IMG/VR virus record: IMGVR_UViG_3300032313_001582
Span: 1-64,000 of that record
DNA: 64,000 nucleotides
Reading direction: 5' to 3' (one strand)
From: a virus
Part shown: positions 26,333 to 53,810 of the stretch, in pieces
Layout of the letters: each line of letters opens with the position of its first letter
Position numbering within the stretch: position 1 is the first letter of the stretch
Notes under the pieces: model-generated
Told to the model about the DNA's origin: nothing
Database searches by the model: none
The model's input: the letters and a program-made list of their open reading frames with translations, nothing else
Made by a program: the position numbers and the translations under genes

Positions 26333-29300
26333 ATGAAAAATATATTTAAAGGCGGTATGTCAGCCGATTTGAGTGCTTTTGATGTTGCTAAAAAATGGAA
26401 GATTAGCCCAATCGAGTTCATGCCTATTCTGGAAAAAGGGACGGAACATGAATTGGAACATACAGACGACAAAGACGTTGCCAGAAGAATTGCCCTTGAC
26501 CACATAGTTGAAAGGTTGGATTATTACGAGCAACTGGATAAGATTGAAATGATGAAAAAGGGTGCAATATTAGAGAAGCCCGAAATTTTCAATGACATTA
26601 CACTTTATTATGAAAAGAAAGGAAATTGGCTTTTCGCTAAAGGAAATTTCTATGCGTGGCTTTATGATGAGAAGGGTGCTGGTGCTAAATTGCAAAATCA
26701 GGAGTATGATTTTATTATGTTTCCACCGATGGGTAAGGGAAATCCATTTAGTGAAAAATATGTACCGCCATTAAGAATGATTTGGGATAAGAGTTATCAA
26801 AAGAAGTTTAAAGGTATTAATCACTTATTGGGCATCGTAAAAGGGTTTTATGATGAAGACAAAAATCAAATCATTATTGATATGATGACGACTAATCCAA
26901 AATTCAGAAGGCAAGGAATCAATGCTCATATAATTAAAAATTTAAGAGAGGAATTTGGAGTTAGTCAAGATGATGTAATTTTTGATAAACCAACAAAAGA
27001 GGGCAAGTTGTTTGAGAGTTCAAAAAAGTACGAAAATGGTGGTTTAATAGCACCGAATGGCGAGCAAAGTAATCTAACTCCAGAACTATATGAGTTGGTT
27101 CGAACTAAAGCGTTCAAAAATTGGTTTGGGGATTGGGAAAACGACCCAGAAAATGCCAGCAAGGTTATAGATAAAAATGGCGAACCAAAAATAGTATATC
27201 ATGGAACGAATAATGATTTTACCATTTTTGATAAAAATAAATTAGGCGAAAAAAACTTTTTCGCGGAATCAGCATCTTTAGGTTTCTTTTTTGCTGGTAA
27301 TATTAAAACTTCCGAAGCATACATCGGAATGAACTCGATGGATTGGGCAGGAGTTCAATTTGGTGCTTATGATGACATCATCAATAAATACAAACCAGAA
27401 CTGGATAGTATTAACAAAGATATTCAACAGATATATGAAAAATATCGAAAACAAGAAAAGGACAATATCAAAAAATTACAAGACGAAATAATTGAAAAGA
27501 TTCGTCAAACGCACAAGGATTTGTCCGAAAATGATTTGAAAGGTATTTTTATCAGAGATATGAATTGGGATGAAATTAACAAATTCGCTCAAGAGGAAAA
27601 CAACTTGAATGGAAATACTCAAAAATTGAAAGAGTTAAACGATAAAATTAAATCAGAGATAGAAGCAAAGTGGAAAGTTAAAACTAATGCAAATCCAAGA
27701 ATCATTTCATTGTTCTTGAATATTAGGAATCCATACATAATTGATTATGCTAATAATAAACAAACTGACCTTTCTCAAGATATAAAAACGGCTATAAAAA
27801 ATACAAATGATGGGGTCATATTCAATAATTTGAAAGATGGAGATGACGTAGACGATATTTTTGTTGTGTTTGATTCAGAGCAAATCAAACTTGCTGATGG
27901 AACAAACACAACTTTTGATATAAACAATCCAGACATTCGGTTTGCCAAGGGTGGCGACACAAACAGAAATTTCAATGATAAAGAATTATTGAAAAGATAC
28001 AATCAAGGAGAAAGCATTGGATTTACTGCAATTGCTCACTTAAAAGCACAAGGATTAATCGAGAGGTCAGATGGTACAAAGAGAAAAAGCATAAACAGTT
28101 TTAAGCAAGGTGGACTAATCGCACCTAATGGTGAACTTAGTAATCTTACGCCTGAACAATACAATTTGGTCAGGACTCCAGAATTTAAAGGTTGGTTTGG
28201 TTTTTGGGATTTATATCCTTCTGGTAAAGCAAATGACTATTATCAGCCAAATGTAAGAACAATCGCAAGAGAGTTGAAGCAAGAAAAATTCTCTGCCATC
28301 CAAGAAGTGGTTGATTTTTTGAGCAAGCAAGTCAATGAAGAAGATGTGTTAATACCCATGCCAAGTAGATATGGTTATGCTACGGACACTCAAAAATTGG
28401 TTGAAAAAATATCGGAGAGAACGGGTGCAAAAGTTTTCGATTGTTTGGTAGGGAAAAAAAGGCAGAGTATTTATGAACTGAAGAAAACAAATCAAGATGT
28501 ATCTGACTTTGAATTCGACTTCCAAATAAATTGTGAAATACCCAAAGCCAGAAATTATTTTATTGTAGATAATGTTATTGGAACTGGTATTACTATGAAA
28601 AATGCGTTAATGAATGTTATAGCAAGGGTAGGCAAGAATGTTAGCCCTTTAGTTTATGCCATAGACCTCAATAATATTTCCAAGGTTGTAGATGAAAATG
28701 ATGAGCCATTGGTAGTTCATCATGGTAGTATTATTGATACCAAATTTGACATATTTGATTACAAAAAAGCCGATTTAGGTTTTCATTTTGGTACGAAAGA
28801 ACAAGCAAAAAAAAGAGTGGAAAGCAAATCCGTTTTACCACCAAGAAAATCAATAGTCAATTCATTTTTCCTGAACATAAGAGTTTTGTTTGAAATGACT
28901 GATGTGGGCGAATGGCAGTACCCACAACGATACATTGATGAGTTGATGTCGGATAATATTATTGAAGAAAAAGTTGCGAAACAAAAAGGGTTTTTATCAT
29001 TGTATAGGCGAGAAGACAATGCCATCATAAGGGACTACTTAAAGTCAAAATATGGCAGTTTTGTGGGGTTTGTGTACAATAACAAATACGAGGGAAATGG
29101 TAAATCATTTATTGCGTTATCTCGAAATGAAATCAAGTTAGCCGATGGTAGTAATAAGACTTTTGATAGTGACAATCCTGATATTCGGTTTGACAAAGGT
29201 GGGGAAATACAAAATTTAATAGACCAAGGCGAAATGGAACTTAAAGTATATCCAACCACACCTGAACATGCAAATCTGTATGGGTTTAAATCCAAAAATC

Positions 29301-29962
29301 CTTTGTACATTCAAAGTATATTTATTTCCGAAAATCAAAGATTAAAAGGTATTGGTAAAAAGGTTTTGAAGTATCTGAATGATTTTGCTATAAAAAATGG
29401 ACACGATGTTATGTTTGGTCATATTACACAAAAAGCATCTTTTTCAAAAGATGATTCAAGACAATCAAATTTGGATGATGTTGCTATGATTAAAAATTGG
29501 CTACAAAGTAACGGATATGAAATATGTGAGGGCAACAATGATTTTTACAAGGTCGTGAACAATCCCGACATTCGGTTTGCCAAAGGTGGTAAAACCATAT
29601 CACAAACTCCTGCACCAGCATCAGACAGAGTTTCTGGAAGCAAGACAAATCCAAAAGGTAGTGCCAGTGATTCTTCGCTGGCAAGGTCAATAAAATTCAA
29701 TGATTCTTTGTTAAAAGCGATTGAAAACAAAGTCAAAGCACATAACGAAGAATATCCATCTAAAAAAGTTACAATACCAACGGCAAAAGCAGTGGTACGA
29801 AGAGGTATGGGGGCTTATAGCAAATCACATAGACCTTTCATTACTGGTGGAGCGCCAAACTCCAGACAAGCATGGGGGTTGGCAAGGTTAAATAAGTTTT
29901 TACTTAAAAAGCGTGGTGTAAAAGTTAAAAGTGCTTATGTACAAGATGATGACTTACTCTAA
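26333..29962 (+). CDS. Polyvalent/polyprotein A: DUF5661-like, GNAT, ART, ART with PRTase insert, GNAT, DUF5824-like modules separated by xxxGG linkers
   Basis: GTEHELEH...IALDH; KFRRQGI; YHGT..GFFFA..FLNIRNP..QIK; IVDNVIGTG; QRLKGIG; VRRGMGAY..SHRP..WGLARL. Confidence 0.8.
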   Translation: MKNIFKGGMSADLSAFDVAKKWKISPIEFMPILEKGTEHELEHTDDKDVARRIALDHIVERLDYYEQLDKIEMMKKGAILEKPEIFNDITLYYEKKGNWLFAKGNFYAWLYDEKGAGAKLQNQEYDFIMFPPMGKGNPFSEKYVPPLRMIWDKSYQKKFKGINHLLGIVKGFYDEDKNQIIIDMMTTNPKFRRQGINAHIIKNLREEFGVSQDDVIFDKPTKEGKLFESSKKYENGGLIAPNGEQSNLTPELYELVRTKAFKNWFGDWENDPENASKVIDKNGEPKIVYHGTNNDFTIFDKNKLGEKNFFAESASLGFFFAGNIKTSEAYIGMNSMDWAGVQFGAYDDIINKYKPELDSINKDIQQIYEKYRKQEKDNIKKLQDEIIEKIRQTHKDLSENDLKGIFIRDMNWDEINKFAQEENNLNGNTQKLKELNDKIKSEIEAKWKVKTNANPRIISLFLNIRNPYIIDYANNKQTDLSQDIKTAIKNTNDGVIFNNLKDGDDVDDIFVVFDSEQIKLADGTNTTFDINNPDIRFAKGGDTNRNFNDKELLKRYNQGESIGFTAIAHLKAQGLIERSDGTKRKSINSFKQGGLIAPNGELSNLTPEQYNLVRTPEFKGWFGFWDLYPSGKANDYYQPNVRTIARELKQEKFSAIQEVVDFLSKQVNEEDVLIPMPSRYGYATDTQKLVEKISERTGAKVFDCLVGKKRQSIYELKKTNQDVSDFEFDFQINCEIPKARNYFIVDNVIGTGITMKNALMNVIARVGKNVSPLVYAIDLNNISKVVDENDEPLVVHHGSIIDTKFDIFDYKKADLGFHFGTKEQAKKRVESKSVLPPRKSIVNSFFLNIRVLFEMTDVGEWQYPQRYIDELMSDNIIEEKVAKQKGFLSLYRREDNAIIRDYLKSKYGSFVGFVYNNKYEGNGKSFIALSRNEIKLADGSNKTFDSDNPDIRFDKGGEIQNLIDQGEMELKVYPTTPEHANLYGFKSKNPLYIQSIFISENQRLKGIGKKVLKYLNDFAIKNGHDVMFGHITQKASFSKDDSRQSNLDDVAMIKNWLQSNGYEICEGNNDFYKVVNNPDIRFAKGGKTISQTPAPASDRVSGSKTNPKGSASDSSLARSIKFNDSLLKAIENKVKAHNEEYPSKKVTIPTAKAVVRRGMGAYSKSHRPFITGGAPNSRQAWGLARLNKFLLKKRGVKVKSAYVQDDDLL

Positions 29963-30330
29963 TGACTAAAAAACAAAAACTGGGCGATTGCTACGAAGTT
30001 GCTGGAAGGATGGCAATTTTAGGGCTTTCAAAAGCACCGAACGGAGAAAAGTTCTTAGGGAATCCTATGGTAGTCCATGGTGAAGTCGAAGGTCAGGGTA
30101 AAATCAAAGGAATACGATATGGGCATGCATGGATTGAAGATGATGTTTATGTTTATGATTTTTCAAATGGTAGAAATTTGATGTTATTAAAAGAAGTTTA
30201 TTATTATTTAGGAAAAATCATCCAAGACAAGCCAAAACTCTATAAATATACGTTCATACAAGCCAGAGAAAAGATGATTGAAACTGGTGAATACGGTCCT
30301 TGGGATTTAATAACGGAATCAGGTCTTTAA
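29962..30330 (+). CDS. Minimal transglutaminase-like (Cys-His-Asp) peptidase
   Basis: GDCYE...GHAWIE...VYDFS; TAATG coupling to polyprotein A. Confidence 0.7.
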   Translation: MTKKQKLGDCYEVAGRMAILGLSKAPNGEKFLGNPMVVHGEVEGQGKIKGIRYGHAWIEDDVYVYDFSNGRNLMLLKEVYYYLGKIIQDKPKLYKYTFIQAREKMIETGEYGPWDLITESGL

Positions 30331-30356: not shown

Positions 30357-32912
30357 ATGAATCAAGTATCTTTTACAAATACAGACGAAATAGGGACACC
30401 AAACAAGCCTTTAGACTCTTTTAAAGAAGGGGGCGAGATTAAACACATTTCGGGTGAAGCAGGTGGTTATTTGGTTGGTAAACGACACTCTGAGGGTGGA
30501 ATAAAAGCCATCAACAAAAGCACTGGTCAACCCTTGGAAATGGAGGGAGGTGAAGTCGTTATCACTCGTAATGCAGTGAGTGACACACAGAAATACGAAT
30601 TTGAAGGAGAGATGCTTACAAATCGCGAGATTTTAAGCAAGATTAATGAAGGAGGCGGTGGGGTGGCTTTTGCTGATGGTGGCGAAGTTTGTCATGTCTG
30701 TGATGCCGAGTATAATTACAAGGGTAAAAAGATGAAAGATTCAGAAATCTTCCGTGAAATGGCACTTGGTGGAGAGGTTGATGATATTTTAGATGCAGTG
30801 GATGATTTGACTTTTGAAGATTTGGATTCAAAATTTGATGACGAAACAGATGCGACTTTAGAAGCAATAAATACTATCGTTAATCAAAATAGTGGGAAAG
30901 ATTATTGTTTTAAAGGCAAAAAAAATACACCTTATGATGGCAAATATTTCTTTACCAAAGTAATAGATGCAGATATTGATGAGGCATATTTTGAGGAAGT
31001 TTTTGTAGAAAACCCAGAATATTTTACAATTAAAAGTAAAGACATAGTAGATAATTTTACTATCTTACCTAAAGGTTTTGAAATTTATGTGAACTGGTTT
31101 GAACACATCGCATATAAACAGATAGGCAATTTTCAAAGTTTTACTTATGGTAGCCCAACAGGATTAAACGCGACCTTCGATAACCCAAAAGGTTTATTTA
31201 ATGTTGATACCAATGAGTGTATTGTAATAACAGAGGAAAACAGGCAATTTTTAACTACAAATAATCCAGAAGTCAGTCCTGAAACTACAAATCAAGAAAT
31301 TTTGAACTATGTAGAATATTGGAAAACTTTGTTGCCAAGCACTTTTAATGCTTTTGATAAATTCGAGAATCGTTTTAAGGATGCAAAATTTTTCAGAGCC
31401 TACGCAGTAATTCATAGACAAAGTATTTCCAGTCCAATACAATTAAAGTATTTCATGGTTTATGGAAAAATGACAGTAAAAGGTAGTGCGTTGGTAAAGA
31501 TTTACACCTTTAATTTGAGAGATGATGAAAAAAGAGTATGGATGGTTGATACTAATACCCCTTTTGACGATTTCTTAAAAAGGTCTGACAATTTTTCTAA
31601 TTTATACAATTTAGATATTGTTATTGGATATAAAGATTGCTACAACAATATTAAACTTAGTTATATCCTAAATTCTGAAATACCCATCAAAATTAAAAAT
31701 TCAGACTTTAGTAATTCACAATCTTTTTTGAGTTATCTAAGTACAGGAGATAATGAATTTGCATATAAATTTGTGAATAAAGGAAGTGAAAAGACTATTG
31801 TTATTGATGGGTTAGAAGACCCCAAAATGGACGATTTAATTATCGATTTTAATCAAGTAAATACAGAGCAAGAAAGAAAATACATTGAGAGTAGGATACG
31901 AGAATTAGGATTAAAGATAAAATTGTTTCGTGCATCGATGAGTTTAGAAGAGTTTGGTGCAGTTCAAAGAGAGTTAAGAAAGTATGTAACATATCTTCAA
32001 GATTCATATTTAAGAGAAAAAAATTCAAATCCCCTTAGTTTTTTTGAACGTATAAAAGATGCTATCAAGGTTGATTTTGGAAATATTGATGCTAAGTATC
32101 CACTGACAAAAAATCTTTCTATCAATGGTTTATCCAGTCAACTAACCGAGCAAGAATGGTTGACAGTTCGAAGTGAAGATTTCAAAATTTGGTTTGGAGA
32201 TTGGGAAACTGCATACTACGACCAAAATTACTCTGGAGTTAGTGTAATCATTGACGATGCAACCAAAGAACCTATGCCCGTTTATCATGGTACAAATGTC
32301 AAATTTGTAGACTGGAAAACATACGAAAGTAATAACCTTCATTATTTCGCCAAGAAACGAGAAATGAGCGAATGGTTTGCCAAAGCATGGAAGATGGGTC
32401 GTGATGACAAGGCAGGTATAGAGAGTGCCCAAATTAAGCAAGGCAATCCATTTCAAGGAGAGTATTTGTATCGGGTATTTTTAAATATCAAGAACCCGAT
32501 TGATTTCAGTCCTTTTGGAGTCGATAAAGTAAAATTAGCCGATTTAGTTGCCTACCTAAAAATTAAGTATGGTGTGGGGGATTACGATTTATGGTCTAAC
32601 AACGATTACTTTAAGAAAGGAACTGTAACCATGGAATCCAAAGTATTTACATGGCAAATTATTCGTTTGTGGCAGAATTTTAATACCTACATAAGAGAAT
32701 TTACACCTTACGATGGGTTCATTTTTTATGAGTATATTCCAAGTAAAGCGAATTCTGGAAACATTGAAGATGCATCTTTGTCTTTCTGTGCTTTCAGAAC
32801 CGAGCAAATTAAGTTTCATGATGCCGTATCGTTTTCACCTGAAGTAAGTGATAGTCGATTTGCTTTGGGTGGTAAGGTAATTACTAAAAAGAAGAGAAGA
32901 AAAACCAAATAA
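30357..32912 (+). CDS. Polyvalent/polyprotein B with a C-terminal ART-like module
   Basis: Probable start MNQVSF after a TATCTTTG box; FKEGG, FADGG, MALGG and FALGG linkers; FKIWFGDW..YHGT..FLNIKNP..YDG..EQIK. Confidence 0.78.
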   Translation: MNQVSFTNTDEIGTPNKPLDSFKEGGEIKHISGEAGGYLVGKRHSEGGIKAINKSTGQPLEMEGGEVVITRNAVSDTQKYEFEGEMLTNREILSKINEGGGGVAFADGGEVCHVCDAEYNYKGKKMKDSEIFREMALGGEVDDILDAVDDLTFEDLDSKFDDETDATLEAINTIVNQNSGKDYCFKGKKNTPYDGKYFFTKVIDADIDEAYFEEVFVENPEYFTIKSKDIVDNFTILPKGFEIYVNWFEHIAYKQIGNFQSFTYGSPTGLNATFDNPKGLFNVDTNECIVITEENRQFLTTNNPEVSPETTNQEILNYVEYWKTLLPSTFNAFDKFENRFKDAKFFRAYAVIHRQSISSPIQLKYFMVYGKMTVKGSALVKIYTFNLRDDEKRVWMVDTNTPFDDFLKRSDNFSNLYNLDIVIGYKDCYNNIKLSYILNSEIPIKIKNSDFSNSQSFLSYLSTGDNEFAYKFVNKGSEKTIVIDGLEDPKMDDLIIDFNQVNTEQERKYIESRIRELGLKIKLFRASMSLEEFGAVQRELRKYVTYLQDSYLREKNSNPLSFFERIKDAIKVDFGNIDAKYPLTKNLSINGLSSQLTEQEWLTVRSEDFKIWFGDWETAYYDQNYSGVSVIIDDATKEPMPVYHGTNVKFVDWKTYESNNLHYFAKKREMSEWFAKAWKMGRDDKAGIESAQIKQGNPFQGEYLYRVFLNIKNPIDFSPFGVDKVKLADLVAYLKIKYGVGDYDLWSNNDYFKKGTVTMESKVFTWQIIRLWQNFNTYIREFTPYDGFIFYEYIPSKANSGNIEDASLSFCAFRTEQIKFHDAVSFSPEVSDSRFALGGKVITKKKRRKTK

Positions 32913-39846: not shown

Positions 39847-42800
39847 ATGACTACCAAAGAAAAATATGAATTGATTGATAAAACCAAAGTGAGTGCAAAG
39901 GTTTTGGAAATCCTTGAAAAGATGGAAAAAGCCAGTAGCAATTTTACTAACGCGGAAGTCAATTCGAGAGTAGACACTGCATTGGATAAAATTATAGAAG
40001 GCTTAAAGGTTAGTAAACCAGAGGCTTTGCTTTCAGTTTCTGATGCTAAAAAAGAAGTGAAAAAGGAAAAGAAAGAAGCGGAAGAGAAAAACAAGGGAAA
40101 AGACCTTTCTAAGAAAAAAGACACTGACGATAAAACTGGTTTGCCGAAAAAGGACACGGTAGAAGAGCGTAAGGACATCATTAAAAAAGAGTCTGAGAGC
40201 GAAAAGGAAGCCAGAGAAAGAGCCAAAAAAGAGTTAGAGAAAGAAAATGAAAAAGCCAAGGATGTAATTGAAAGTCAGATAGAAAAATTGAATCGAATCA
40301 TTCTGGAAGACCCAGCCTTGAGAGGTTTTAACACAGGAACGTCTGCAACAGGGGGTGGTAAAAGCACGCCTTTAATTGATGCCGAGCGTAAAGCAATTCC
40401 TCGTGGAAGAAGAGTGAGTCAAAAAGGACGTAAAAACCAGTATGGGGCTTCAGCAGGTGGTCGTGTGTATTGGGAAAACCGAGAGAATCGTTCAGATAGA
40501 AAAAGTCCAGATTATCCAACTGGTAAGCCTTACTTGGAAAAAGGAGGAAATGTGTACGCATCTGATGATTTATATGAGGTGAAAATGGTTCAAGATGGGA
40601 TAGAGTTAGATTCTAAACTTATTCGTGCCAGAAACAAGGGTGAAGCAAGGATGATTTTTGAAGACATGTATCAAGAAAAATATCAAGATGAATTTGGTGC
40701 ATTTGACTTAGAAATTGATATAGCGAAAGACAGAATGGCTGATGGTGGCGGTATTCCTTATAAACCTTATGGAAAAACTAAGGGTCGTTTTACTTTGAAG
40801 TATGAAGACGATGGCGTGCAACAAAGTGAAATCTGGTCGTCTTTAGAAGAAGCGACAAATAGTGCAAGAAGATATGTAAATCCGAAATTGGGATACACTA
40901 ATGTGCAAATTTATGATGAAAGTGGCAAAGAGTATTTTTTTGCTGATGGTGGCTCTATGCTTAAAAGTGGCTATGTTGCCTATCCGAGTGGAGATGAAGG
41001 CGATGAACTTGGTGTTTTCAACGACAAGGAAAGCATGATAAATTTTGCGTTTGCGAACAAGGATAAATATGGGAAATTGATTTTTGAAGGGATAGAAAAT
41101 GATGACATTCTTGAGGTTAAAAAGGGTGATAGCAAGGATGTTATTACTTGGGAGTTTTCACGCATAGGAATGGATAGAAAAGAGGCAAATAAAAAAATAA
41201 AAATGTGGTTCATTAGTAATTATCCTGCTGATGAAGAAGAGGCAAAGCAAATTGATGAAAGTGTTACTTTTGATGATATATGGTTTGATTTGAAAGACCA
41301 GAGAAATATTTATGATAGGTTAAGAAATCATTATGTAGTAAGAGAAGTGTTTGAAAAAATAGCATCAATTTACGGGGTAGAATATGATTTTGTTGAGAAA
41401 ATGTATAAAAGAGAAAGTTACGCCAAAGGTGGCTACATGGCTGATGGTGGTAAAACTGAGCAGTTGTACAGTTCTATAAAGAGAGATAGATTGAGGGCGT
41501 TGGAAGATGAAATTTCAACTTTGAATTTAATGTTGAAAAAATTAGAAAATGAAAACAATGAAGAATCATACCAAGAGTCCCAAAATTTAAGAGAGTATAA
41601 GACAATTTTAGAAGTGAAAAAATTGAATCTTGAAGATATTGGATATGATAAAGGTGGAATGATGGCTGATGGTGGTAAAGTGGATAAAAGAATTTTAGAA
41701 AAGGTATACGAATATTATGATATTTATAAAGATGGTACTAATCGAGAACATTATTACGACTTTGACAATATAGAAAAAGTAAAAGAACATATTGAGAAAA
41801 GAACTGGGATGGAAGTACTTAAAATTAAAGAAATAGAAATAGGTCGAAACTACCCAGACAACATGTCACACCCCTACTATCATGATGATTATGAATTTGA
41901 GTTAGTGAAAGGGCAACCTTTGAGAGTTGAAAGAATGTATGGTAGACCAAATTATAGTGGTAATGTTGCTTACACTAATACGATAGAAGTTAAAAACTTG
42001 TGGCAAATGGCTGATGGTGGGATGCTTGATGATGAAGGCAACTTAATTGATATTAAAATTGGGGATGAGGTAGTGGAATATAAAAAACGCACTCCTAATG
42101 CAACCGAGAAAACACCAATAGGTCCGAAAGGTCGTGTGATAAAAATAATGGACAATTTTGCTAAAGTATCTTTTCCAAATGATTACGAAGAAAATATTTT
42201 ATTAAGGGATTTAAAAAAAATGTCCAAAGGTGGCATGATGGCTGATGGTGGTTATATAGAAAGCGGTGAAAAACTTTATGAAATTGCCAACAACATGTCT
42301 GATAAAGAATTTCAAGAGGCTTATCGCAATTTATCTGAAAAAGAAAAAGATTTATATGACACACTATTGCGGTTAGGTGATGAGGACAAAATTGCTCTTG
42401 TAACTGTACTAAACGAATCAAAAAAACCGAAATATGATAAATCGACTTGGGATTTACATAGATATGCGAAAGGTGGTTTGGTCGAGGAAATAAAAATGTT
42501 TGATAAATACAATTATCCAATCCCAAAAACCAAAGGAGATAAAGTCAGAGCCATTTTTGAACACTTCAAGAAAAAAGGATATTCCACAGAAGAAATAAAC
42601 ACTGCACTTAGCGAAATTAATTACGCCAAAGGTGGTGAAATGGCTGATGGTGGTGAAACTGAATCCGAACCTTCGGGTATAAACGAATCTGTTTATTTTG
42701 AGGTTTATGATGGTAATCGGAATAATGGAATAATCAAATTCCACAAAAGTGGTTCAAGGATTTTTGAAACACTTTTAATTGGAAATGTAAAAGCAGGCAA

Positions 42801-43668
42801 CCGAAAATACATGTCGTATTTTACAAAAAATGATTTAAAATCATCTTTATATAGAGATTTTGATGTGGTAAATGAGGTAGATGAAGATTATGTGCAGGAC
42901 CGTTTAATATCATACGAAAAAAGTAAGCCTGCTGATATTCTCGTTGTCAAATATCCCTATCCCGAATTAGCGAAAACTGCCGATACCTTGACAATAATTA
43001 AAGGTGGAGAACAAGTTTTTGATTATGACTCAATTACAAAAGATTTCAGTCTGGTTTCAATAGGTTTAAGTTACCCTGACCAAATAGAACTGGATGATTT
43101 TTTAGAAGATTCTAAAGGTGTTTCTGAAAGCCAATATACACCTGAATTAATTAAAGTGATTGAAGTAATTAAAGAAAATGAAGACATCAACGAAATTGTT
43201 GATGGATTGAAAAGTAAAGGTCTTATCAAAAATTACATGATGGCTGAAGGCGGTGAAGTTGATTTCAGTGAGAGAATGGCAAAAATGCGGAGTGCCTATG
43301 AAAATTTGCAAATGTCCGTTAAAGGAAAAATTGCAAGTGCCATTGGGATAGATGAAGCAGTTGCAATTATGGACACAGACTATTCAATACACCCATTTAA
43401 TTTAATATTCGGTGCAGTTCGTGGGGGTTTATTAGAACTTGATGAAATCAATAAGGATTTGGTGAATGAAGCAGTTGATGAAGCAGAAAGAGTAACTGAC
43501 GATTATAGAGATTCTGGACAAGGTATTGGCGGTAGTGACATGACTTATTTTACCCAAAACGTGTTGAATAGCGCAGGTTACAAAACTGGATTCATCAATA
43601 ACACCTTAAAACGAGTTGATGCTGATGGTAATGAATTAGTAATTGATAAATACGAAATGAAATTCTGA
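39847..43668 (+). CDS. Polyprotein C (about 14 xxxGG linkers, many small modules)
   Basis: Repeated MADGG/YAKGG motifs; K/E-rich and Arg-rich N-terminal module. Confidence 0.85.
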   Translation: MTTKEKYELIDKTKVSAKVLEILEKMEKASSNFTNAEVNSRVDTALDKIIEGLKVSKPEALLSVSDAKKEVKKEKKEAEEKNKGKDLSKKKDTDDKTGLPKKDTVEERKDIIKKESESEKEARERAKKELEKENEKAKDVIESQIEKLNRIILEDPALRGFNTGTSATGGGKSTPLIDAERKAIPRGRRVSQKGRKNQYGASAGGRVYWENRENRSDRKSPDYPTGKPYLEKGGNVYASDDLYEVKMVQDGIELDSKLIRARNKGEARMIFEDMYQEKYQDEFGAFDLEIDIAKDRMADGGGIPYKPYGKTKGRFTLKYEDDGVQQSEIWSSLEEATNSARRYVNPKLGYTNVQIYDESGKEYFFADGGSMLKSGYVAYPSGDEGDELGVFNDKESMINFAFANKDKYGKLIFEGIENDDILEVKKGDSKDVITWEFSRIGMDRKEANKKIKMWFISNYPADEEEAKQIDESVTFDDIWFDLKDQRNIYDRLRNHYVVREVFEKIASIYGVEYDFVEKMYKRESYAKGGYMADGGKTEQLYSSIKRDRLRALEDEISTLNLMLKKLENENNEESYQESQNLREYKTILEVKKLNLEDIGYDKGGMMADGGKVDKRILEKVYEYYDIYKDGTNREHYYDFDNIEKVKEHIEKRTGMEVLKIKEIEIGRNYPDNMSHPYYHDDYEFELVKGQPLRVERMYGRPNYSGNVAYTNTIEVKNLWQMADGGMLDDEGNLIDIKIGDEVVEYKKRTPNATEKTPIGPKGRVIKIMDNFAKVSFPNDYEENILLRDLKKMSKGGMMADGGYIESGEKLYEIANNMSDKEFQEAYRNLSEKEKDLYDTLLRLGDEDKIALVTVLNESKKPKYDKSTWDLHRYAKGGLVEEIKMFDKYNYPIPKTKGDKVRAIFEHFKKKGYSTEEINTALSEINYAKGGEMADGGETESEPSGINESVYFEVYDGNRNNGIIKFHKSGSRIFETLLIGNVKAGNRKYMSYFTKNDLKSSLYRDFDVVNEVDEDYVQDRLISYEKSKPADILVVKYPYPELAKTADTLTIIKGGEQVFDYDSITKDFSLVSIGLSYPDQIELDDFLEDSKGVSESQYTPELIKVIEVIKENEDINEIVDGLKSKGLIKNYMMAEGGEVDFSERMAKMRSAYENLQMSVKGKIASAIGIDEAVAIMDTDYSIHPFNLIFGAVRGGLLELDEINKDLVNEAVDEAERVTDDYRDSGQGIGGSDMTYFTQNVLNSAGYKTGFINNTLKRVDADGNELVIDKYEMKF

Positions 43669-46571
43669 TGAACAAGAATATTAGATTTCTAAGCAAAGAC
43701 CAAGCGTATCGTTATATGCCAAATACATCTATTGAAAATGATGTGTTAGATAAAGTTCGTTACACCATTGATAATCTCAAGTTTGCTGGTAATTTTTATT
43801 CAAGTTCATGGCAAGGTGGTGGAGATGGATATTTGTACGATTTGGATACTTATGACGAATATTTGGTTGGTGGCAGAAAACTGAAAGAAGGAGAAAAAAT
43901 ATATCGGTATTTCACCAGAATGAGTGCCATCAGTGGTTCAACCCCATTTATTAAGATTAACATTGATAAGGGATTGTTGTATTTCTTAAAGCCAGATGAT
44001 GAAGGATTGGATTTAATTGAATTCGAAACCAAAGGAATCCCTGTTAGATATTTGAATTTGATTGAAAGTGACAATGAATATTTGGCAGAGAGTGGTATTA
44101 CTGATGATGAGGGTAATTTAATTGACATCAAAGTTGGGGATGAGGTTGTTCAATATAAAAAAAGGTACACTCATGAAGAAAAAGAAGCAGTAGGAGGTAA
44201 GGGTCGTGTAATTTTAATAAATGGTGCTATGGCAAAAGTGTCTTATGGCAATGATTATGAACAATGGCTGGGATTAAATGAACTGAAAAAAATGGCAGAG
44301 GGTGGTGAATTAAAAAGTTACCTCAGTTCTCGTTCTGACATGTTTGATGAGAACGCTAAAACTATTGATAAAAAAGACATTCTTGAGGTAATTAGTTTGA
44401 GCAAAAACTCGGATAAAAAATATTGGGTCAAAGACTTAAATACAAAATATTCCTATTACATCTACAAAGGAAATTTAAGAGCGAATGATGGAACTGGAGG
44501 GATATTTAGTACCACTATACTTAATCCAATGTGGTACTACCTCAAAGATGAACATAGATTTAAGGTACAAGAAGAAGCATTATACGATTGGGAAAAAGAA
44601 AAAGACCCAAGTATTGTTAAAGTTGGATGGGATGCCATAAAGGAAAAATTTGACAATATTTTTTACATGGAGGAAGATGGCGAAGATGAAATATTTGCCA
44701 ACGAAGTAAAATTGGAGGAATCAACATACAATTGGGACGGAAGACCAAGCCCATACAAAAAAAGAGTAAGTTTTTCGGATGCCAAATCTATGTTTCTGCA
44801 AAGTCTTACTGATGAAGAAAAAGCGATGATTGACCTTGAATACGATTATCAAGATGTTCATGAACTTTTTGGTTTAATGTCTGAAAAAAGATTCATCGTT
44901 AAGCGGAAAAAAGATGAATCAAAAGACTTTTTAGATGAATTGGAAAATATGAATTTCGAAGATAGCAGTTTGTATTTGAAAAATGGAGGCAAATTAGCAT
45001 GGCAAAGCGTAGAGGTTGGTGACAATGCTTTGGTAAAATCAGAAAATAAAATGGGTGTTGTTGTCGTGACCTATGGTCGCAGATTCCATTTGCGTTTTCC
45101 AGATGGTAGTGAAAAGACATATTCGGCTGAGGATTTAGAATTTTTACCAAGTGATTCTTACGCGAATGGTGGTAAGATAGACGATTTGGTAGGGCGTACT
45201 ATCACCATGTACGATATGGGCGTTCCTGAGCCAAAATATTATACTATTTCAAGAGTAGAGATGTCGCCTCCATATTTTTCTCGTAAAACGCTTCGTGTCT
45301 ACAACAAATACGGAAATTCCGAACTTGTAGATGTCATAGAAGATGAGCAAATTGACAAATTCTTAAATGGTGAACAAGTAGAACTCAGAACAAGTGGGGG
45401 AGATTATTATGCAATTAAATTAATGAAAGAAATGAAAAAAGGTGGAACTTTAGAAGGCGGTGTTAAAAAGAACATGATTTTCGATGAAAACGGGGAAAGA
45501 AGAACAGACCCAGAAGCGTTGGCTTACATTGAAAACACTGTTGAAATGTTGCCTCAAACCAAATTCGAGCATTCCAATGCCGAAGGCAAATACACGGCAA
45601 AAAGGAAAAAATTGCACGAAGAAATCATTTCTCATTTTAGGGAGGATAAACCTTGTGTGAACAAAAGACCAGCCGTAGCAATTTTGACTGGTGGAGCGCC
45701 AGCATCTGGTAAAACTACATTCATCAAGAAATATGTGGATTTAGACCCAGATAAAGTGTACCATGTGGATGCAGATGAAGTCCGTGCAATGCTTCCAGAA
45801 TACAAAGGATGGAATGCAACTCAGACCCATTTGGAAACTGCTGATATTGTTAATCGTTTGATTGACGAAATTGGTAATCCGTGTGAGCATGATTTGATTT
45901 ACGATGGCACTATGAACAAAGCAACGAAGTATGAAAAAATCGTTGACAAACTTCATAAACTTGGCTACAAAGTGTTCGTGGTTTACATCTCTATTCCAGA
46001 GCAGGTCAGCAAAGAGCGTGTGATTTCTCGTTACAAAAAAGCAGGTCGTTATGTACCCATGAAAGTAATCGAAGAGGTTTACGATAATGGTTTGACTGCT
46101 TTTGAAAAAGTCGCTCGTGAAATGGCTGATGGCTATGTTCGTATTGATGGCATGACTGGAGAAATCATCGAAAAAGGTGGTATGGAAATGCCTAAAAACA
46201 TTGAATACGCTGAAGGTGGAGAAGTAGAAAAATCATATTTGAAAAATGCCGATTCGTTGGTTCGTTCAGCAGAAAGGTATGCTCAAGCAACTTACGAAAA
46301 ACCAGTAAGTAAAGGAAAGGGTATGGCTCGTGCTTCCAAGCAGAATGGACAAATGAAATACACCGAAGTTATCGTATTTTTCCAAGATGGTGAGAAGATT
46401 ACTTTCGATGAAAGCGAGTTCCCTAAATTTTTTATGAAAGATGGCGGTGAACTTGGTCAAGATTATTACGATGGATTCCAAATGCAGGTGATAACCAAAA
46501 AAGGCAATCCAGATAAAGAAGTACAAAAACAAGACACAACATTCAAATACCGTAAAGGTGGAAAATTATAA
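43668..46571 (+). CDS. Polyprotein D including a zeta-toxin-like P-loop kinase module
   Basis: Seven to eight linkers; GGAPASGKT, VDADEVR, YDGTM, GRYVP. Confidence 0.85.
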   Translation: MNKNIRFLSKDQAYRYMPNTSIENDVLDKVRYTIDNLKFAGNFYSSSWQGGGDGYLYDLDTYDEYLVGGRKLKEGEKIYRYFTRMSAISGSTPFIKINIDKGLLYFLKPDDEGLDLIEFETKGIPVRYLNLIESDNEYLAESGITDDEGNLIDIKVGDEVVQYKKRYTHEEKEAVGGKGRVILINGAMAKVSYGNDYEQWLGLNELKKMAEGGELKSYLSSRSDMFDENAKTIDKKDILEVISLSKNSDKKYWVKDLNTKYSYYIYKGNLRANDGTGGIFSTTILNPMWYYLKDEHRFKVQEEALYDWEKEKDPSIVKVGWDAIKEKFDNIFYMEEDGEDEIFANEVKLEESTYNWDGRPSPYKKRVSFSDAKSMFLQSLTDEEKAMIDLEYDYQDVHELFGLMSEKRFIVKRKKDESKDFLDELENMNFEDSSLYLKNGGKLAWQSVEVGDNALVKSENKMGVVVVTYGRRFHLRFPDGSEKTYSAEDLEFLPSDSYANGGKIDDLVGRTITMYDMGVPEPKYYTISRVEMSPPYFSRKTLRVYNKYGNSELVDVIEDEQIDKFLNGEQVELRTSGGDYYAIKLMKEMKKGGTLEGGVKKNMIFDENGERRTDPEALAYIENTVEMLPQTKFEHSNAEGKYTAKRKKLHEEIISHFREDKPCVNKRPAVAILTGGAPASGKTTFIKKYVDLDPDKVYHVDADEVRAMLPEYKGWNATQTHLETADIVNRLIDEIGNPCEHDLIYDGTMNKATKYEKIVDKLHKLGYKVFVVYISIPEQVSKERVISRYKKAGRYVPMKVIEEVYDNGLTAFEKVAREMADGYVRIDGMTGEIIEKGGMEMPKNIEYAEGGEVEKSYLKNADSLVRSAERYAQATYEKPVSKGKGMARASKQNGQMKYTEVIVFFQDGEKITFDESEFPKFFMKDGGELGQDYYDGFQMQVITKKGNPDKEVQKQDTTFKYRKGGKL

Positions 46572-46574
46572 ATC

Positions 46575-47162
46575 ATGGAAAAAGATAAAGTTGAAATAAA
46601 GAACTTTCACAAAAACATCATGGGAACACTCTCATTCGATATGAAATTGTCCAAGATGAGAAAGCCACAGGAGTTCATAGTTTATCCTGTATCGTCTGCT
46701 GATGCCGATAAACCCATAACCATCCAGAGCGATACGAGAATTGGTGTTATTGATTTGGAAACAGGTAAAGGATTGATGAGTCAGTCGCACACTGGAGGTG
46801 CTTATTTTGTGCATTTGAGCGTTGACGAAAAGATTCGATTCAAATTGGATGATACCCAGTTAGAATTGTTCCGTGAAAAGATGCGTAGTACCTCTAAAAC
46901 TGGAGATAGTGTTATCAAAATTGATAATGAAGGTGCAAGCAAATTTAAAAAAGGTGGTAGCCTTGAAGATTATACCATCGATATGGTGAAAAGCGATTTA
47001 AAAGTGATGGAAGAATATGCATCAAAAATCGCATCTTTGTTGGACAAATTAGGCTATGTAGAACCTTGGATTGCAAGCAAGATTTACATCGCTGGTGAAA
47101 ATATAGAAAACATTAAACATTATCTTGAATACGAAGTTGAAGGCTTCCCTACAAAAAAATAA
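46575..47162 (+). CDS. Two-module protein with one FKKGG linker
   Basis: Beta-rich N-terminal module, FKKGG, helical C-terminal module (EPWIASKI). Confidence 0.75.
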   Translation: MEKDKVEIKNFHKNIMGTLSFDMKLSKMRKPQEFIVYPVSSADADKPITIQSDTRIGVIDLETGKGLMSQSHTGGAYFVHLSVDEKIRFKLDDTQLELFREKMRSTSKTGDSVIKIDNEGASKFKKGGSLEDYTIDMVKSDLKVMEEYASKIASLLDKLGYVEPWIASKIYIAGENIENIKHYLEYEVEGFPTKK

Positions 47163-47168
47163 AATCTG

Positions 47169-50100
47169 ATGAATTACGATAACTATTACAAAAATGGCGG
47201 TATGACTAAAGAAGAGTCTATTTCTGCTATCGCTCTTAGAATTGGTGCAAGAAAAGAAGCAGTCGCCAAATTCGTAGAAGAAAACGACATTGATACTAAA
47301 AAAATGAACTCTGACTTGAAGTCGGGAAAAGTTTATTTCATGGACATTATCACTGCCATCGTTGGAAAACCGAACAATAAATACCAAAAGGAAATCATCA
47401 AAAAATATGGTTCTAAAATGGCTATGGGTGGTAAAACTCAGGGTTATGATGACCGAGAAGATGAGAGAGTAGGCATGGACTATGGTAAAATTGCAGGTAA
47501 AGATTTTGTAGGTAGTCATAGTCGTATGGAGCATTCTCGTAGAGATGATGCCAGATTTGAAGAAAGAATGGCAAAGGGTGGAGAACTTACCGATGATGAT
47601 TTCATAGTTGGTGATTTTTATTCGAACTCTTCTGAAGGTGGCAAATTTAAATTTGTAGGAAAAGATGAATCAGGTCGGTTGCGGTTTGAAGATTCAAAAG
47701 GAATTAATAGAATTTTTAGTCCAAAAAGAATGAATAAATATGCTGATGGTGGCATGATGGCAAGAGGTGGATATGTGAGCAAAGGAGAGTTGGTTTGGAA
47801 AAAATTAAGGAAAAGTGAAAGGATGAAGTTTTTACACGAAAATTTCACACCACAAATAACACCAAGAAGTCAAGAAACATTAGTGGATAAAGATTATAAT
47901 TTTCTTCCCAAAAATGTCAAAATTGTTATGGAAAGTAAATACGCGAATGTAGAAGACTATGCTGATGGTGGCATGATGGCAGAGGGAGGTGAAGTGTATT
48001 ATGTACGCGATTTTTACCCAAACTATGATGAGGACAAAATTGTATCAATTTTGAAGTCTAATGGTCTTAGAAAAGTTCGGAAAGCCAAGTTGTATGGAAT
48101 GTCAAATCTACCACAAGTAGCAGTTTTTGAGGGTGATAAAAACAAAGCCCAAGAGATTTTGGAAAAAGAATTTCCAGATAACTACATTTCGATTTATGAA
48201 AAAGATTGGGGTAGAAAAATGGCTGATGGTGGCGAAACTGAGCGTGATACAAATGGTATGTTGTACGCTCTTCAGGAGCATGTTTCAAGCGGTGAAATCG
48301 CCAGTAAGACAAATGCTTCAAAATATTCAGACATCGATGAAATCAGAAGCAAAGCGATTCAGTACTACATGGAAAATGGTGATAAACCATATTCGTATGC
48401 AGAATTGGAATCTGTGTTGAAGAAATTTGACCATACCAAATATGCTAAAGGTGGTCGTGTTTACAAAGATTGGACTGGAAGCAATTCAAAAGAAAATTGG
48501 GGTCAAGAAAATTTATATCCAAAATATAACAACTCTTTAGATTTAATTGCTGATGTATCGGATTATTATAAAGAACTTTCAAAGGATGTTAGTCAAAATT
48601 TTTCTGACGAACAGAAAAACGATATGATTGAAGTTCTAAAAACTGGCAAAAAAACATTTAATGATGGTGCAACATTGAAATTTGCTAATGGTGGTCGCAT
48701 TCAAGAAGAAGATGATTATTTATTAGGATATGAACCTTATTTTGAAAAAAATGTGCCCATCGCATCTATTGATAGAGAGAATAAAATAGTAAGACCAACA
48801 TCGGGGTATTTTCCTAAGCATCCAATGTCAAAAAAAGCAATCAACTGGGCAAAAAAACACGGTTATGATTACATCGCTGACGGCAAAAAATATGATGATG
48901 GAGGCGAAACCGAGCGTAAAGCAGAGGCACTCAAGACCGCAGTTGAAATTGCAACCATGGCTTACAATAATGGAGTTCGAGCGTCTGACATGTCGTTCGA
49001 AGATTTTTCAGATAGAATTTTTGGTTTGTCAAATACCAGTTATCCCATCGTTGATTTGAGATTGGCGTATCAGTCGATGAAGAATGCAAACTACGCTGAA
49101 GGTGGATATATTGATGAAGATGGACTTCATGAATTGGCACGATTGGTCATGGATAGTATTGACTATACCGTGAACATCTCTTTAGATGAATTCATCAAAG
49201 AAGTTAGCATGACTGGTTATCAAAGAGAACTTTGTATGTATGTCTTAAACATGTTCAATGAATATGAAAATCCAAAACCTCGTCTTGGTGAAGTTGAAGA
49301 GTTTCGTCTTGTAAGAGAAGGTATGTTTGAGTATATAAAAAATTATTATCTCAATGAATATCCAACTGATGATTTGGGTGCAGATATAAATCCAAAAGCA
49401 GATTTTGATGGTTTGCTTATGGTTTTAAATGAAGGAGATGATGTTTACGAATATCTTGGTGTTACCGATAGTTTGGTGAGAGAAAGGGTTTTTGAAAAAT
49501 TGGCTAATATCATGGGTGTAGAGTACAATGTAATTTATGATATGTGGTTGTCATCCGATGATAAATTTAAGCAAGGTGGCATAATGGCTAATGGAGGGAA
49601 GATTGCCAAGGATGACGTAAAGGATAAAATTTACTTCATGTACCAAAAATTTAAACTTGGAATGGGAGATGTTTTTGCAACAATTTTGCCTGAAAATCCA
49701 AATGGAGGAAAAATAAAATATGGTCTTCATATTCGTGACGTAGTTAATAACCCTTCAAGAACTCAAAAATATAATACACAAATTTTTGAATTGGATGCAC
49801 CTTATTATCCAGACTCAAATGGAGGTATAAGATATGCTCAGAATCATCCTTATGATGTATATAAATTCAAAGCGATAGGTATGGGTAATCACCTTTTGGT
49901 TGTGGAATTACCAAGCAAAGGTCGCAGAGGATTGAGCGATTTAATTTATGATATTCTCTATAAACAAAAGAATTATGATATTAATAATATCAATAATCAA
50001 GATAAAAATATTTTGCCGAAAGACTATCCTAATTTTTTCTTGAATGACTTATTTGTTTTCAAGGGAGATATGTTCAATTTGATGCGATTAATGGATAGAA

Positions 50101-52655
50101 TAGAATCGGAATTTAAGTATAAAGGAAATAAATTGTATAAAGATAAAACCCCTTATAAAATGACGATTATCTGGAACATTCCAGAATTAAGGGATTATAA
50201 TAACAAAATAACAACTCCTGCCACATACATACCAATAGTAGAAATCGAAAATGAATTAGAAGGCAATTCAAAAAAATTCGAAGTTGGTGGTGCTATCGAA
50301 AACCAATACGAAGGTAGAACCCCCGAAGACATTTGGGATAGCCTTGACCGTGACCAGAGATACCACTTCATTGACGACCATGCACTTCAAATAGAAATGT
50401 TGCAAGATAAAAATTATGATTTTAATTCGGACAAATTTCCAGAGTCAATAAGCAATGATTTAGTCAAGAAATCCATGCGCTCTGACTGGAAAGACTTGGA
50501 TGAAACGATACAAAATAGATTTGCAAATCATGTTAGAACGGGTGAATACGCCAAGGGTGGTGAAATTCGTTCTCAAAAAGAATTTAATAATCTTGTAGAG
50601 GAAAAACGAAGGCTTGTAAAAAATCTTTCTCCAAAAGAAGTTGCAGAAATGTGGAATCGAAATACTATTGGTAGCCCAAATAGAATGACCGAAGAAGAGG
50701 CTAAAATGTCCAAGGCAAAAATTTATTTGTCAGATTTATTAGTCGAAAAAGAATTAACAGAAGCAGAATATAATCAATATTTTGCAAAAGGTGGCATGAT
50801 GGCTGATGGTGGTGCTATCGAAAACCAATATGAAGGTAGAACTGCTAAGGACATTTGGGAATCTTGGAATCATGAGCAAAAAATTCATTTTTTTATAGAC
50901 CATAAAGAACATACATACTATAACATGGGGGGTAAAGAATTTGTCGTATCTAAAAATGATAGAGAAAAGTATGTAGGTATGAGTTATGATGATTTACCAA
51001 AAACTGTAAGACTTATGATTTCCGACCATGTTGAAGAAGGTCAATACGCAAATGGTGGTGAAATTGGTTCTATGATAACCTATAAAGGCAGAAAAACAAA
51101 AATTTTAGATGCTTACAAGGATAAAGCATTTGGTGATAGGATGGTTTACAAGGTAAATACACCTTTGTATGAAAATATAAAAAATTCTCCCATGACTAAA
51201 ACTATAATTACGCAAGATGAAAATGGTGAATATAGAAAAATAGAAAGAAGTGATTATGTTGATAAAATGGCTAAAGGTGGTGAAATATCTGAACAAAATA
51301 AAATTAACAAAAAGGTTCTTGCATTAGTTCAGAAAGCAAATATTGATTCAAAATTAGAATTCGGTCAACTTGTTGTGTCTGCTCTCACTGATGCTAATGC
51401 TCATTCTGAAGTTAGGAAGTTCATTTCTATCATTGAGAAAAAACCAGAATGGGCAGAAAAGCCAAAAGAGATTGACATGAAATTGCCTCGTGAAGAATAT
51501 GAAAAACAAAGGGCAAAAACAGTTTATAGTTCTAAATATTATGATGCAAATGAAGAAATAAATGATTTGGGAATAAAAATCGCCAACATGTTTGGATGGG
51601 ATTTCGAAGGCATTTTGGATTCATTAATTTTTGCTTCAAAAATGTCAGGTCGTAATGATGTTGCAGAAGTTTTAGAAAAACTGAACACTGATGATGATAA
51701 ACAAGATGCAACAAAAAACAAATGGGATTACACCGATGTGGATGACATTGAATATGTTGTTGTTAAAGACAAAAGCGGAAAAGAACTCAGGTTTGCTGGA
51801 AAGCACGTTTTAAGTGGTGTTCATGACCTTCTGGAAAAAGGCGGTAAACTATCTGAAAAAGGTAAATACTATTCAAAAGACAATGTAGTGTCAGTAGTAG
51901 TTGGAGGCAAAAACATCATCGATAAAAACACTGTTTCTGGTGTTTGGATTATGAAAGATGCAAAACCCATCGCGGATGATGTTGCCGACATGAAAATTGG
52001 AAAAACTACCATTAGAAAAGGTTTTAATGGATGGGTTGGTAAAACCATGGTTGACAACTTCAAAGGTTTTGATTGGGATATAACCACAATTAAAACCTCA
52101 AGGGGCGATTTGGTGACTACTGCTCAAGGTGGTAAATCCCAAGATAATAATGGATATAAGTCATTCTCTTTTATGTTGTTCCAAGACCCTAACATTCGTT
52201 TGAAAGTTTCCCGTCCAGCCCGTGTGACTGATAAAGTTGTGTCTGCACAACATGAAGAGGCTTTGAAAGAATTCAAAGAAAGACAGGAAGAAATTGCCGA
52301 AATGGTAGACCAGATTCAAGCCAAGAAAAAAATGGCTGATGGCGGTGCAATCGGATTTGATGCATTGGCAAAAAAGGTTGCCAAAAACTATGAGGGCGAT
52401 AAAGTAAAGAAGCAATACCAAGATGAGTATGGTAAAACATACGACAAGAAAGAAGCCGAAGAAGTTGGTAAAAAAGTAGCCGCGAAAGTGTATCGTCAGC
52501 AAAAAGCAAAAGGCAAAATGGCAAAAGGTGGTGAAACATCCAATTACCGAACTAATAGTAAATTAGCAAGAATTTCCGCAAAAGCCAAAGAGATTCGTAA
52601 GGCAAACGAACCATGGAGAGATGCTTTCAAAAGAGCGAAAGCAATGATTGGCTAA
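47169..52655 (+). CDS. Polyprotein E (about 23 xxxGG linkers)
   Basis: 1828 aa; internally duplicated modules; basic C-terminal module. Confidence 0.88.
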   Translation: MNYDNYYKNGGMTKEESISAIALRIGARKEAVAKFVEENDIDTKKMNSDLKSGKVYFMDIITAIVGKPNNKYQKEIIKKYGSKMAMGGKTQGYDDREDERVGMDYGKIAGKDFVGSHSRMEHSRRDDARFEERMAKGGELTDDDFIVGDFYSNSSEGGKFKFVGKDESGRLRFEDSKGINRIFSPKRMNKYADGGMMARGGYVSKGELVWKKLRKSERMKFLHENFTPQITPRSQETLVDKDYNFLPKNVKIVMESKYANVEDYADGGMMAEGGEVYYVRDFYPNYDEDKIVSILKSNGLRKVRKAKLYGMSNLPQVAVFEGDKNKAQEILEKEFPDNYISIYEKDWGRKMADGGETERDTNGMLYALQEHVSSGEIASKTNASKYSDIDEIRSKAIQYYMENGDKPYSYAELESVLKKFDHTKYAKGGRVYKDWTGSNSKENWGQENLYPKYNNSLDLIADVSDYYKELSKDVSQNFSDEQKNDMIEVLKTGKKTFNDGATLKFANGGRIQEEDDYLLGYEPYFEKNVPIASIDRENKIVRPTSGYFPKHPMSKKAINWAKKHGYDYIADGKKYDDGGETERKAEALKTAVEIATMAYNNGVRASDMSFEDFSDRIFGLSNTSYPIVDLRLAYQSMKNANYAEGGYIDEDGLHELARLVMDSIDYTVNISLDEFIKEVSMTGYQRELCMYVLNMFNEYENPKPRLGEVEEFRLVREGMFEYIKNYYLNEYPTDDLGADINPKADFDGLLMVLNEGDDVYEYLGVTDSLVRERVFEKLANIMGVEYNVIYDMWLSSDDKFKQGGIMANGGKIAKDDVKDKIYFMYQKFKLGMGDVFATILPENPNGGKIKYGLHIRDVVNNPSRTQKYNTQIFELDAPYYPDSNGGIRYAQNHPYDVYKFKAIGMGNHLLVVELPSKGRRGLSDLIYDILYKQKNYDINNINNQDKNILPKDYPNFFLNDLFVFKGDMFNLMRLMDRIESEFKYKGNKLYKDKTPYKMTIIWNIPELRDYNNKITTPATYIPIVEIENELEGNSKKFEVGGAIENQYEGRTPEDIWDSLDRDQRYHFIDDHALQIEMLQDKNYDFNSDKFPESISNDLVKKSMRSDWKDLDETIQNRFANHVRTGEYAKGGEIRSQKEFNNLVEEKRRLVKNLSPKEVAEMWNRNTIGSPNRMTEEEAKMSKAKIYLSDLLVEKELTEAEYNQYFAKGGMMADGGAIENQYEGRTAKDIWESWNHEQKIHFFIDHKEHTYYNMGGKEFVVSKNDREKYVGMSYDDLPKTVRLMISDHVEEGQYANGGEIGSMITYKGRKTKILDAYKDKAFGDRMVYKVNTPLYENIKNSPMTKTIITQDENGEYRKIERSDYVDKMAKGGEISEQNKINKKVLALVQKANIDSKLEFGQLVVSALTDANAHSEVRKFISIIEKKPEWAEKPKEIDMKLPREEYEKQRAKTVYSSKYYDANEEINDLGIKIANMFGWDFEGILDSLIFASKMSGRNDVAEVLEKLNTDDDKQDATKNKWDYTDVDDIEYVVVKDKSGKELRFAGKHVLSGVHDLLEKGGKLSEKGKYYSKDNVVSVVVGGKNIIDKNTVSGVWIMKDAKPIADDVADMKIGKTTIRKGFNGWVGKTMVDNFKGFDWDITTIKTSRGDLVTTAQGGKSQDNNGYKSFSFMLFQDPNIRLKVSRPARVTDKVVSAQHEEALKEFKERQEEIAEMVDQIQAKKKMADGGAIGFDALAKKVAKNYEGDKVKKQYQDEYGKTYDKKEAEEVGKKVAAKVYRQQKAKGKMAKGGETSNYRTNSKLARISAKAKEIRKANEPWRDAFKRAKAMIG

Positions 52656-53805: not shown

Positions 53806-53810
53806 ATACT

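Follow-up and report, generated by a model that had tools for sequence, protein, structure and literature searches.

The question at this locus is whether a 122-residue Cys-His-Asp protein, encoded between two giant genes rich in Gly-Gly (GG) linkers, cuts these linkers or is itself one of the modules that such linkers join. The DNA analysed here (the window, 64,000 nucleotides) is positions 1 to 64,000 of an IMG/VR virus record that is 79.7 kb long and estimated to be 94% complete. The features on which the argument depends are the following:

26333..29962, + strand: gene of polyvalent protein A (1209 aa), with DUF5661, GNAT-like, ART-PolyVal and GNAT domains and a C-terminal DUF5824-like module
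29960..29964, + strand: TAATG stop/start overlap of the Cys-His-Asp gene with the upstream gene A, seen in the sequence
29962..30330, + strand: stand-alone Cys-His-Asp domain gene (P0001, 122 aa), characterised by its ORF, homologues, triad, structural model and pN/pS
30357..32912, + strand: gene of polyvalent protein B (851 aa), GG-rich in its N-terminal module and with ART-PolyVal at its C-terminus
39847..52655, + strand: further giant proteins rich in GG linkers (1273, 967, 195 and 1828 aa, with 19, 15, 2 and 29 GG sites, respectively), listed as background to the proposed set of substrates

A conserved gene between two polyvalent protein genes

The original prediction had described a 122-aa ORF coupled to gene A by TAATG and carrying the motifs GDC, HAW.E and a downstream YD, and this description was borne out in its coordinates, in the shared base and in all three motifs (residues 8–10, 55–59 and 65–66). 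The last A of the gene A stop codon TAA (29960–29962) is the first base of the P0001 start codon ATG (29962), and 26 bases lie between the P0001 stop and the start of gene B. The putative catalytic residues are Cys10 (codon TGC, 29989–29991) within G8-D9-C10, His55 (codon CAT, 30124–30126) within H55-A56-W57-I58-E59 and Asp66 (codon GAT, 30157–30159) within Y65-D66, and the protein ends in a conserved tail, GPWDLITESGL. Homologues of near-equal length numbered 36 (43–98% identity), and a search of 1.8 billion library proteins gave at least 1596 representative clusters of the family (50% identity, E ≤ 1e-3). Of 255 copies of the domain, all have His55 and 254 have Cys10, and Asp66 is found in 249 and replaced by Glu in five; G8, H39, Q45, E59, S68, N69, Y80, Y81, Y96, G112 and W114 were also near-invariant. 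Comparison of P0001 with an 89%-identical copy in another locus (L002) gave a pN/pS of about 0.07. The near-length homologues, the number of clusters, the kept triad and the low pN/pS together place P0001 well beyond chance; it is a real gene and is under purifying selection.

The flanking proteins A and B, which had been noted as polyproteins, are likewise real: both contain an ART-PolyVal domain (PF18760), the GG motif is enriched, and they fit the description of polyvalent proteins given by Iyer et al. 2017 (PMC5512222). Protein A has seven GG sites, which lie at domain edges, such as the NPDIRFAKGG found after each ART-type module. In three of the further giants the GG sites (15–29 each) mostly read [FYM]-A-x-G-G, and the 967-aa protein contains a Zeta-toxin domain. 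The density of hydrophobic-x-x-GG sites was 4.35 per 1000 aa in the window, compared with about 1–2 in unrelated phage loci. A literature search on the linker peptides returned unrelated papers only.

Several other parts of the window were recorded. The C-terminal module of A (29588–29959) is DUF5824-like and reads ..RRGMGAYSKSHRP..GG..NSRQAWGLARLNKFL..AYVQDDDL; in fused relatives it often adjoins the Cys-His-Asp module, in either order, and it is also found in relatives that lack the Cys-His-Asp module. The N-terminus of protein B (30420–30690) is a Gly-Gly-dense module (GEAGGYLVGKRHSEGGIKAINKSTGQPLEMEGGEVVITRNA) that recurs in relatives (L119 and the proteins P0063 and P0069) and showed no family match. 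Two adjoining DNA methyltransferase genes (433 and 439 aa, phrog_67) are located at 642–3262 on the − strand.

Predicted fold and sequence family

A single-sequence AlphaFold model of P0001 was unusable (pLDDT 41) and was replaced by a model from a 48-sequence alignment, which was confident (pLDDT 91.9, pTM 0.85). In this model Cys10 opens helix 10–20, His55 lies in strand 52–59 and Asp66 ends the next strand (63–66), and thus Cys is at the N-terminus of a helix with His and Asp on adjacent strands, as in the papain/transglutaminase-like fold. Structure prediction had been proposed as a check on the assignment of P0001 to the transglutaminase-like papain fold with Cys-His-Asp order. The model, the triad and the structural neighbours uphold this assignment at the superfamily level; the role of processing protease that had been attached to it did not fare as well (see below).

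A Foldseek search of the PDB with the model gave no match at E ≤ 1e-3. Its list of weak matches included a C39-like peptidase, staphopain, NTAQ1, protein-glutaminase, PeiR/PeiP, a papain-like CdiA toxin, USP14 and vasohibin, and most of the top 50 rows were papain-like enzymes, all of them weak. With a Foldseek-independent aligner, which counts a Z of about 8 as clearly meaningful, every match scored lower: the best was human NTAQ1 (Z 5.3–5.9, 102–104 of 122 residues, rmsd 3.6–3.7), followed by LapG, protein-glutaminase, SseI and SpvD (Z 4.1–4.6) and by NlpC/P60 enzymes and the C39 domains of ComA and PCAT1 (Z 3.5–3.8). The NTAQ1 alignment (model residues 6–118 to chain residues 24–181) puts Cys10 on the catalytic Cys28. 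The predicted fold class is supported by the consistency of these neighbours, with no single strong match among them.

Searches of P0001 against Pfam (E ≤ 0.1) and PHROG models gave no match, a profile search of PDB sequences found nothing at E ≤ 10, and cluster look-ups returned no informative names. The only Pfam family that recurred was Transglut_core3 (PF13471), with weak matches in 8 of 48 relatives (best E 0.0055) covering profile positions 88–112 of 117. Two of these matches, inspected singly, stayed at 11.6 and 13 bits, below the cut-off of 26, and spanned the His-Asp segment only, and the profile was not detected in the virus's own genome, P0001 included. Membership of P0001 in Transglut_core3 was rejected, as the gathering score of 26 bits was not reached. 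The nearest ESM-Atlas clusters (score 0.95, 83–100% viral) carry the automatic name 'McjB C-terminal domain', which we take to be the same Pfam family. P0001 stands as a transglutaminase-like Cys-His-Asp protein at the superfamily level and as a member of no named family.

The domain in fused polyvalent proteins

The closest homologues of P0001 are mostly long proteins (up to 1732 aa) in which the domain is found at the C-terminus, at the N-terminus or internally. All eight long homologues that were scanned contained ART-PolyVal, together with Zeta toxin, NUDIX, GNAT or DUF5661. In such fusions the domain is preceded by ..FAKGG(K) and, where it is not terminal, followed by ..EYxxGG, while terminal or solo copies end in a conserved WDLxTESGL. 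Some relatives have the sequence ...AYVQDDDL[MF]-ANGG-IAKGGDCYEAAG in one chain, with the ANGG linker where the window has TAATG; at the equivalent place the window reads ...AYVQDDDLL-stop/Met-TKKQKLGDCYEVAG. Because relatives carry this ANGG-joined chain at the position of the window's stop/Met, the solo P0001 is a product of gene fission at the linker.

The domain is therefore both fused to effector domains in variable order and found solo, which is the pattern of a polyvalent module. Iyer, Burroughs, Anand, de Souza and Aravind (2017) reported that many LPD domains occur solo or fused, proposed a zincin MPTase as the processing hub of polyvalent proteins and counted wall-attacking domains among these proteins (PMC5512222). 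The text of that paper never mentions papain, transglutaminase, cysteine, linker or glycine.

Presence and absence in related viruses

To retrieve viral records rich in GG linkers, the C-terminal DUF5824-like module of A was used as bait, which performed better than ART-PolyVal. A profile of the Cys-His-Asp domain was searched in 20 whole records of this kind, and the full sequences of the near-complete ones were examined. The domain was present in 4 of the 20 records and in three of six near-complete related viruses, all six of which share a core gene set and GG-rich proteins. In G001, G005 and G017 (86%, 90% and 100% complete, respectively) an unfiltered hmmsearch found no homologue (best E > 1), and these viruses encode 3, 3 and 8 ORFs, respectively, with 5–29 GG linkers each. 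Like G008 and G010, in which the domain was found, they have at least 10 core genes in common with the window's virus. The original prediction had proposed co-occurrence with GG polyproteins in relatives as a check and had named absence from relatives with such polyproteins as a refutation; exactly this absence was observed in the three viruses that keep GG-rich ORFs and core genes without the domain.

The arrangement of the modules also differed between relatives. In G001 (L119:8795–13468) the A-like and B-like parts form a single 1558-aa ORF with no Cys-His-Asp module between them; the junction, ...AYIQDDDLLK-YANGG-EVVAKNED..., is in frame and lies exactly where the window has a stop, the 122-aa gene and a new start. 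G010 has the reverse order, with the domain preceding the DUF5824-like module, and the G008 copy follows an ART module in a fused protein. Since relatives differ in both module arrangement and presence, the domain behaves as a cassette that can be present or absent while the GG junctions are retained.

The core region (53500–64000 of the window and L163:1–7100) contains at least 10 core genes common to the six related viruses, which are 72–102 kb in size. A LEA_2 protein is among their products, and a scan of ten core genes gave no terminase, portal or peptidase match. Core genes placed in the window include:

56394–57041: PAP2 phosphatase
58908–59720: HerA/FtsK-like ATPase, with a weak DUF87 match
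60043–60735: 230-aa protein

The wider family

Homologues were present in 34 IMG/VR loci, of which only L002, a close relative of the window, and L003 were GG-rich; the remaining 31 were at background density. In about two thirds of these 31 loci the homologue is a solo protein of 109–170 aa, and in the rest the domain is part of proteins of 271–2306 aa. None of 80 loci retrieved with the ART-PolyVal bait contained the domain, although what it yielded was mainly giant proteins without GG enrichment, which made for a poor control set. A degenerate DNA pattern for KGGMMADGG gave three matches only and was too specific. In 50,697 deposited phage genomes the sole homologue was gp61 of Mycobacterium phage Barnyard (NP_818599.1), whose neighbours are small non-structural genes (HNH endonuclease, helicase, exonuclease).

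In several records of T4-like or jumbo phages, the homologue is located within arrays of genes or modules that each start with a LREYIRELLxE-type peptide; the homologues in L010, L011 and L013 themselves carry this tag, and two of the records with tagged arrays encode a gp21-like Peptidase_S77. Tag arrays with the consensus [LIV]RE[YL][IV]RE[LM]L.E were seen in L008, L010–L013 and L020–L022 (e.g. L022:6310–9998 and L012:9169–16850). In phage T4, gp21 cuts after (L/I)-x-E and thereby removes capsid-targeting peptides from internal proteins. The consensus peptide, with L-x-E at its end, resembles a tag for capsid targeting or cleavage and would be a second module delimiter besides GG. Given the GG-linked fusions, the LREYIRELLxE-tagged copies and the gp21-like peptidase in two records, the domain would thus be carried as cargo by two tagging systems that are unrelated to each other, and at least one of these includes its own protease.

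Cargo enzyme or linker protease

On balance we lean slightly towards P0001 being an optional, mobile, effector-type thiol amidohydrolase module of the polyvalent toolkit. P0001 would be a free-standing copy of a mobile and dispensable enzyme module from the phage polyvalent-protein (cargo/effector) toolkit. Cys10, at the helix start, would act as the nucleophile with His55 and Asp66 on the adjacent strands, making P0001 a minimal papain/transglutaminase-like thiol enzyme. We infer that this enzyme would hydrolyse an amide bond, whether peptide, isopeptide or side-chain amide, in a target from the host or one delivered together with it, possibly alongside the ART, GNAT, Zeta-kinase and NUDIX modules that are strung with the domain in relatives. 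The domain is probably horizontally mobile and may be delivered with the virion, as cargo. Three observations count against this reading: all structural matches are below a Z of about 8, the sequence family that comes closest, albeit weakly, is that of a leader-peptide protease (Transglut_core3/McjB), and no other protease was recognised in the virus or its relatives by the search for MPTase-PolyVal or in the core-gene scans.

This last observation is shared by the proposal that P0001 is a trans- or cis-acting papain-like protease that cuts polyvalent proteins after hydrophobic-x-x-Gly-Gly, analogous to C39 double-glycine peptidases, deubiquitinases and viral papain-like proteases. MPTase-PolyVal was absent from the window's virus and from five relatives, and neither it nor any other recognisable protease was available there for the task. 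Moreover, the P0001 gene sits between two genes with GG linkers, in fusions the domain itself has a ..FAKGG linker on one side and a ..EYxxGG linker on the other, cutting after Gly-Gly is frequent in papain-like enzymes, and the list of fold neighbours contains the GG-specific C39 domains of ComA and PCAT1 (Z 3.5–3.6, below the aligner's meaningful range) as well as USP- and Josephin-type enzymes. Nevertheless, we regard this proposal as unlikely. The 3–8 GG-rich ORFs that each of three of the six near-complete relatives keeps in the absence of a homologue, and the fusion of A and B across the P0001 site in G001, are difficult to reconcile with it, as are the absence of the domain from all 80 ART-PolyVal loci and the fact that most homologues belong to phages without GG linkers (31 of 34 loci, and Barnyard). 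The variable position of the domain also resembles that of other effector modules rather than that of a hub peptidase. P0001 cannot be the general or necessary GG-processing enzyme, and the claim that it is the best candidate in the window for cleaving xxxGG sites found no support in view of the three relatives that lack the domain and the 31 of 34 homologue loci without GG enrichment. Because close relatives keep their GG giants without the domain, P0001 is more likely an optional cargo enzyme than a GG protease. If the GG linkers are cut, the enzyme could contribute where it is present. A virion protease of clan CE with GG-X specificity (adenain, ASFV pS273R, Ulp1-like) was also considered and rejected: the catalytic order in that clan is His-Asp/Glu-Cys, and in P0001 it is Cys10-His55-Asp66.

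A combination of the two ideas, which we consider rather improbable, is that the domain, where present, is a Gly-Gly-directed thiol protease carried as cargo, either as an optional trimmer of the GG junctions of the virus itself or as a deubiquitinase-like enzyme that strips off host ubiquitin-like or other Gly-terminated conjugates produced by bacterial defence systems. If true, this would explain both the patchy, accessory distribution of the domain and its home among strings of GG-linked effectors.

It is quite improbable that P0001 aids entry or lysis as a peptidase or amidase of peptidoglycan, of the NlpC/P60 or CHAP type. Polyvalent proteins do include wall-attacking domains (PMC5512222), and NlpC/P60 enzymes, the endolysin Lys2972, the Andhra tail-tip CHAP domain and pseudomurein endoisopeptidases are among the fold neighbours (Z 3.0–3.8), but these neighbours rank below cytoplasmic amidases (NTAQ1, Z 5.9), all these values being under the Z of about 8. 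At E ≤ 0.1 no NlpC/P60 or CHAP HMM matched P0001, no cell-wall-binding domain was detected, and the Barnyard gene lies outside the lysis and tail modules. The fusion partners ART, Zeta, NUDIX and GNAT, whose site of action is inside the cell, are also of intracellular kinds.

That P0001 is a transglutaminase or transpeptidase, joining GG-terminated modules to lysines, as the original prediction had suggested as an alternative, or cross-linking proteins, is highly improbable: the triad order and HAWxE motif are transglutaminase-like, and the fold neighbours include TglA and further proteins with a transglutaminase fold, but the closest structures are hydrolases and deamidases rather than cross-linking transglutaminases, no acceptor-site feature was identified, and the distribution of the domain is as independent of GG linkers here as under the protease model.

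Significance

Polyvalent proteins and papain-like effectors are both already known. What is new is a large, mostly viral and un-named Cys-His-Asp family that no Pfam or PHROG model covers, and with it the addition of a predicted thiol-hydrolase module to the polyvalent-protein toolkit. The negative result is informative too, in that the enzyme that seemed best placed to cut the Gly-Gly junctions proved dispensable; if these junctions are cut at all, attention shifts to an enzyme of the host or to a viral one that has escaped recognition. The clean presence and absence of the module at one junction (A-YANGG-B in one chain versus A, module and B as separate genes, with stops after A and after the module) provides a useful natural experiment on module function.

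Comparison with known systems

The best structural neighbour of P0001 is NTAQ1, the N-terminal glutamine amidohydrolase (PDB 6kgj, 3c9q), with a Z below the confidence range of the tool; NTAQ1 differs from P0001 in being about 80 residues longer, shares only 7–9% sequence identity with it and has no HMM relation to it. Peptidase C39 domains (ComA, PCAT1), which cut after Gly-Gly, have a papain-like Cys-His-Asp fold in common with P0001, although the match is weak (Z 3.5–3.6) and there is no C39 Pfam match (E ≤ 0.1); unlike these domains, which occur in an ABC-transporter/bacteriocin context, P0001 has no ABC-transporter fusion, lies among phage polyvalent genes and belongs to a family distributed independently of GG linkers. 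With Transglut_core3 (PF13471), the family of McjB-type lasso-peptide leader proteases, P0001 shares the Cys...His...Asp order and the HAWxE...D motif; it differs in having no HMM match itself, in relatives that reach 11–13 bits instead of 26, and in the absence of a lasso-peptide context.

Barnyard gp61, annotated only as gp61, is 42% identical to P0001 over 114 residues and is likewise a solo protein of similar size, but it is encoded by a siphovirus of Actinobacteria that has no polyvalent or GG-linker proteins nearby. Compared with the polyvalent systems described by Iyer et al. (PMC5512222), the window's virus lacks the MPTase hub, and the domain matches no Pfam LPD or other model. In its behaviour, however, the domain is like the modules of polyvalent proteins: it is fused in variable arrangements with ART-PolyVal, Zeta toxin, NUDIX, GNAT and DUF5661, and it also stands alone beside such proteins, as it does in the window.
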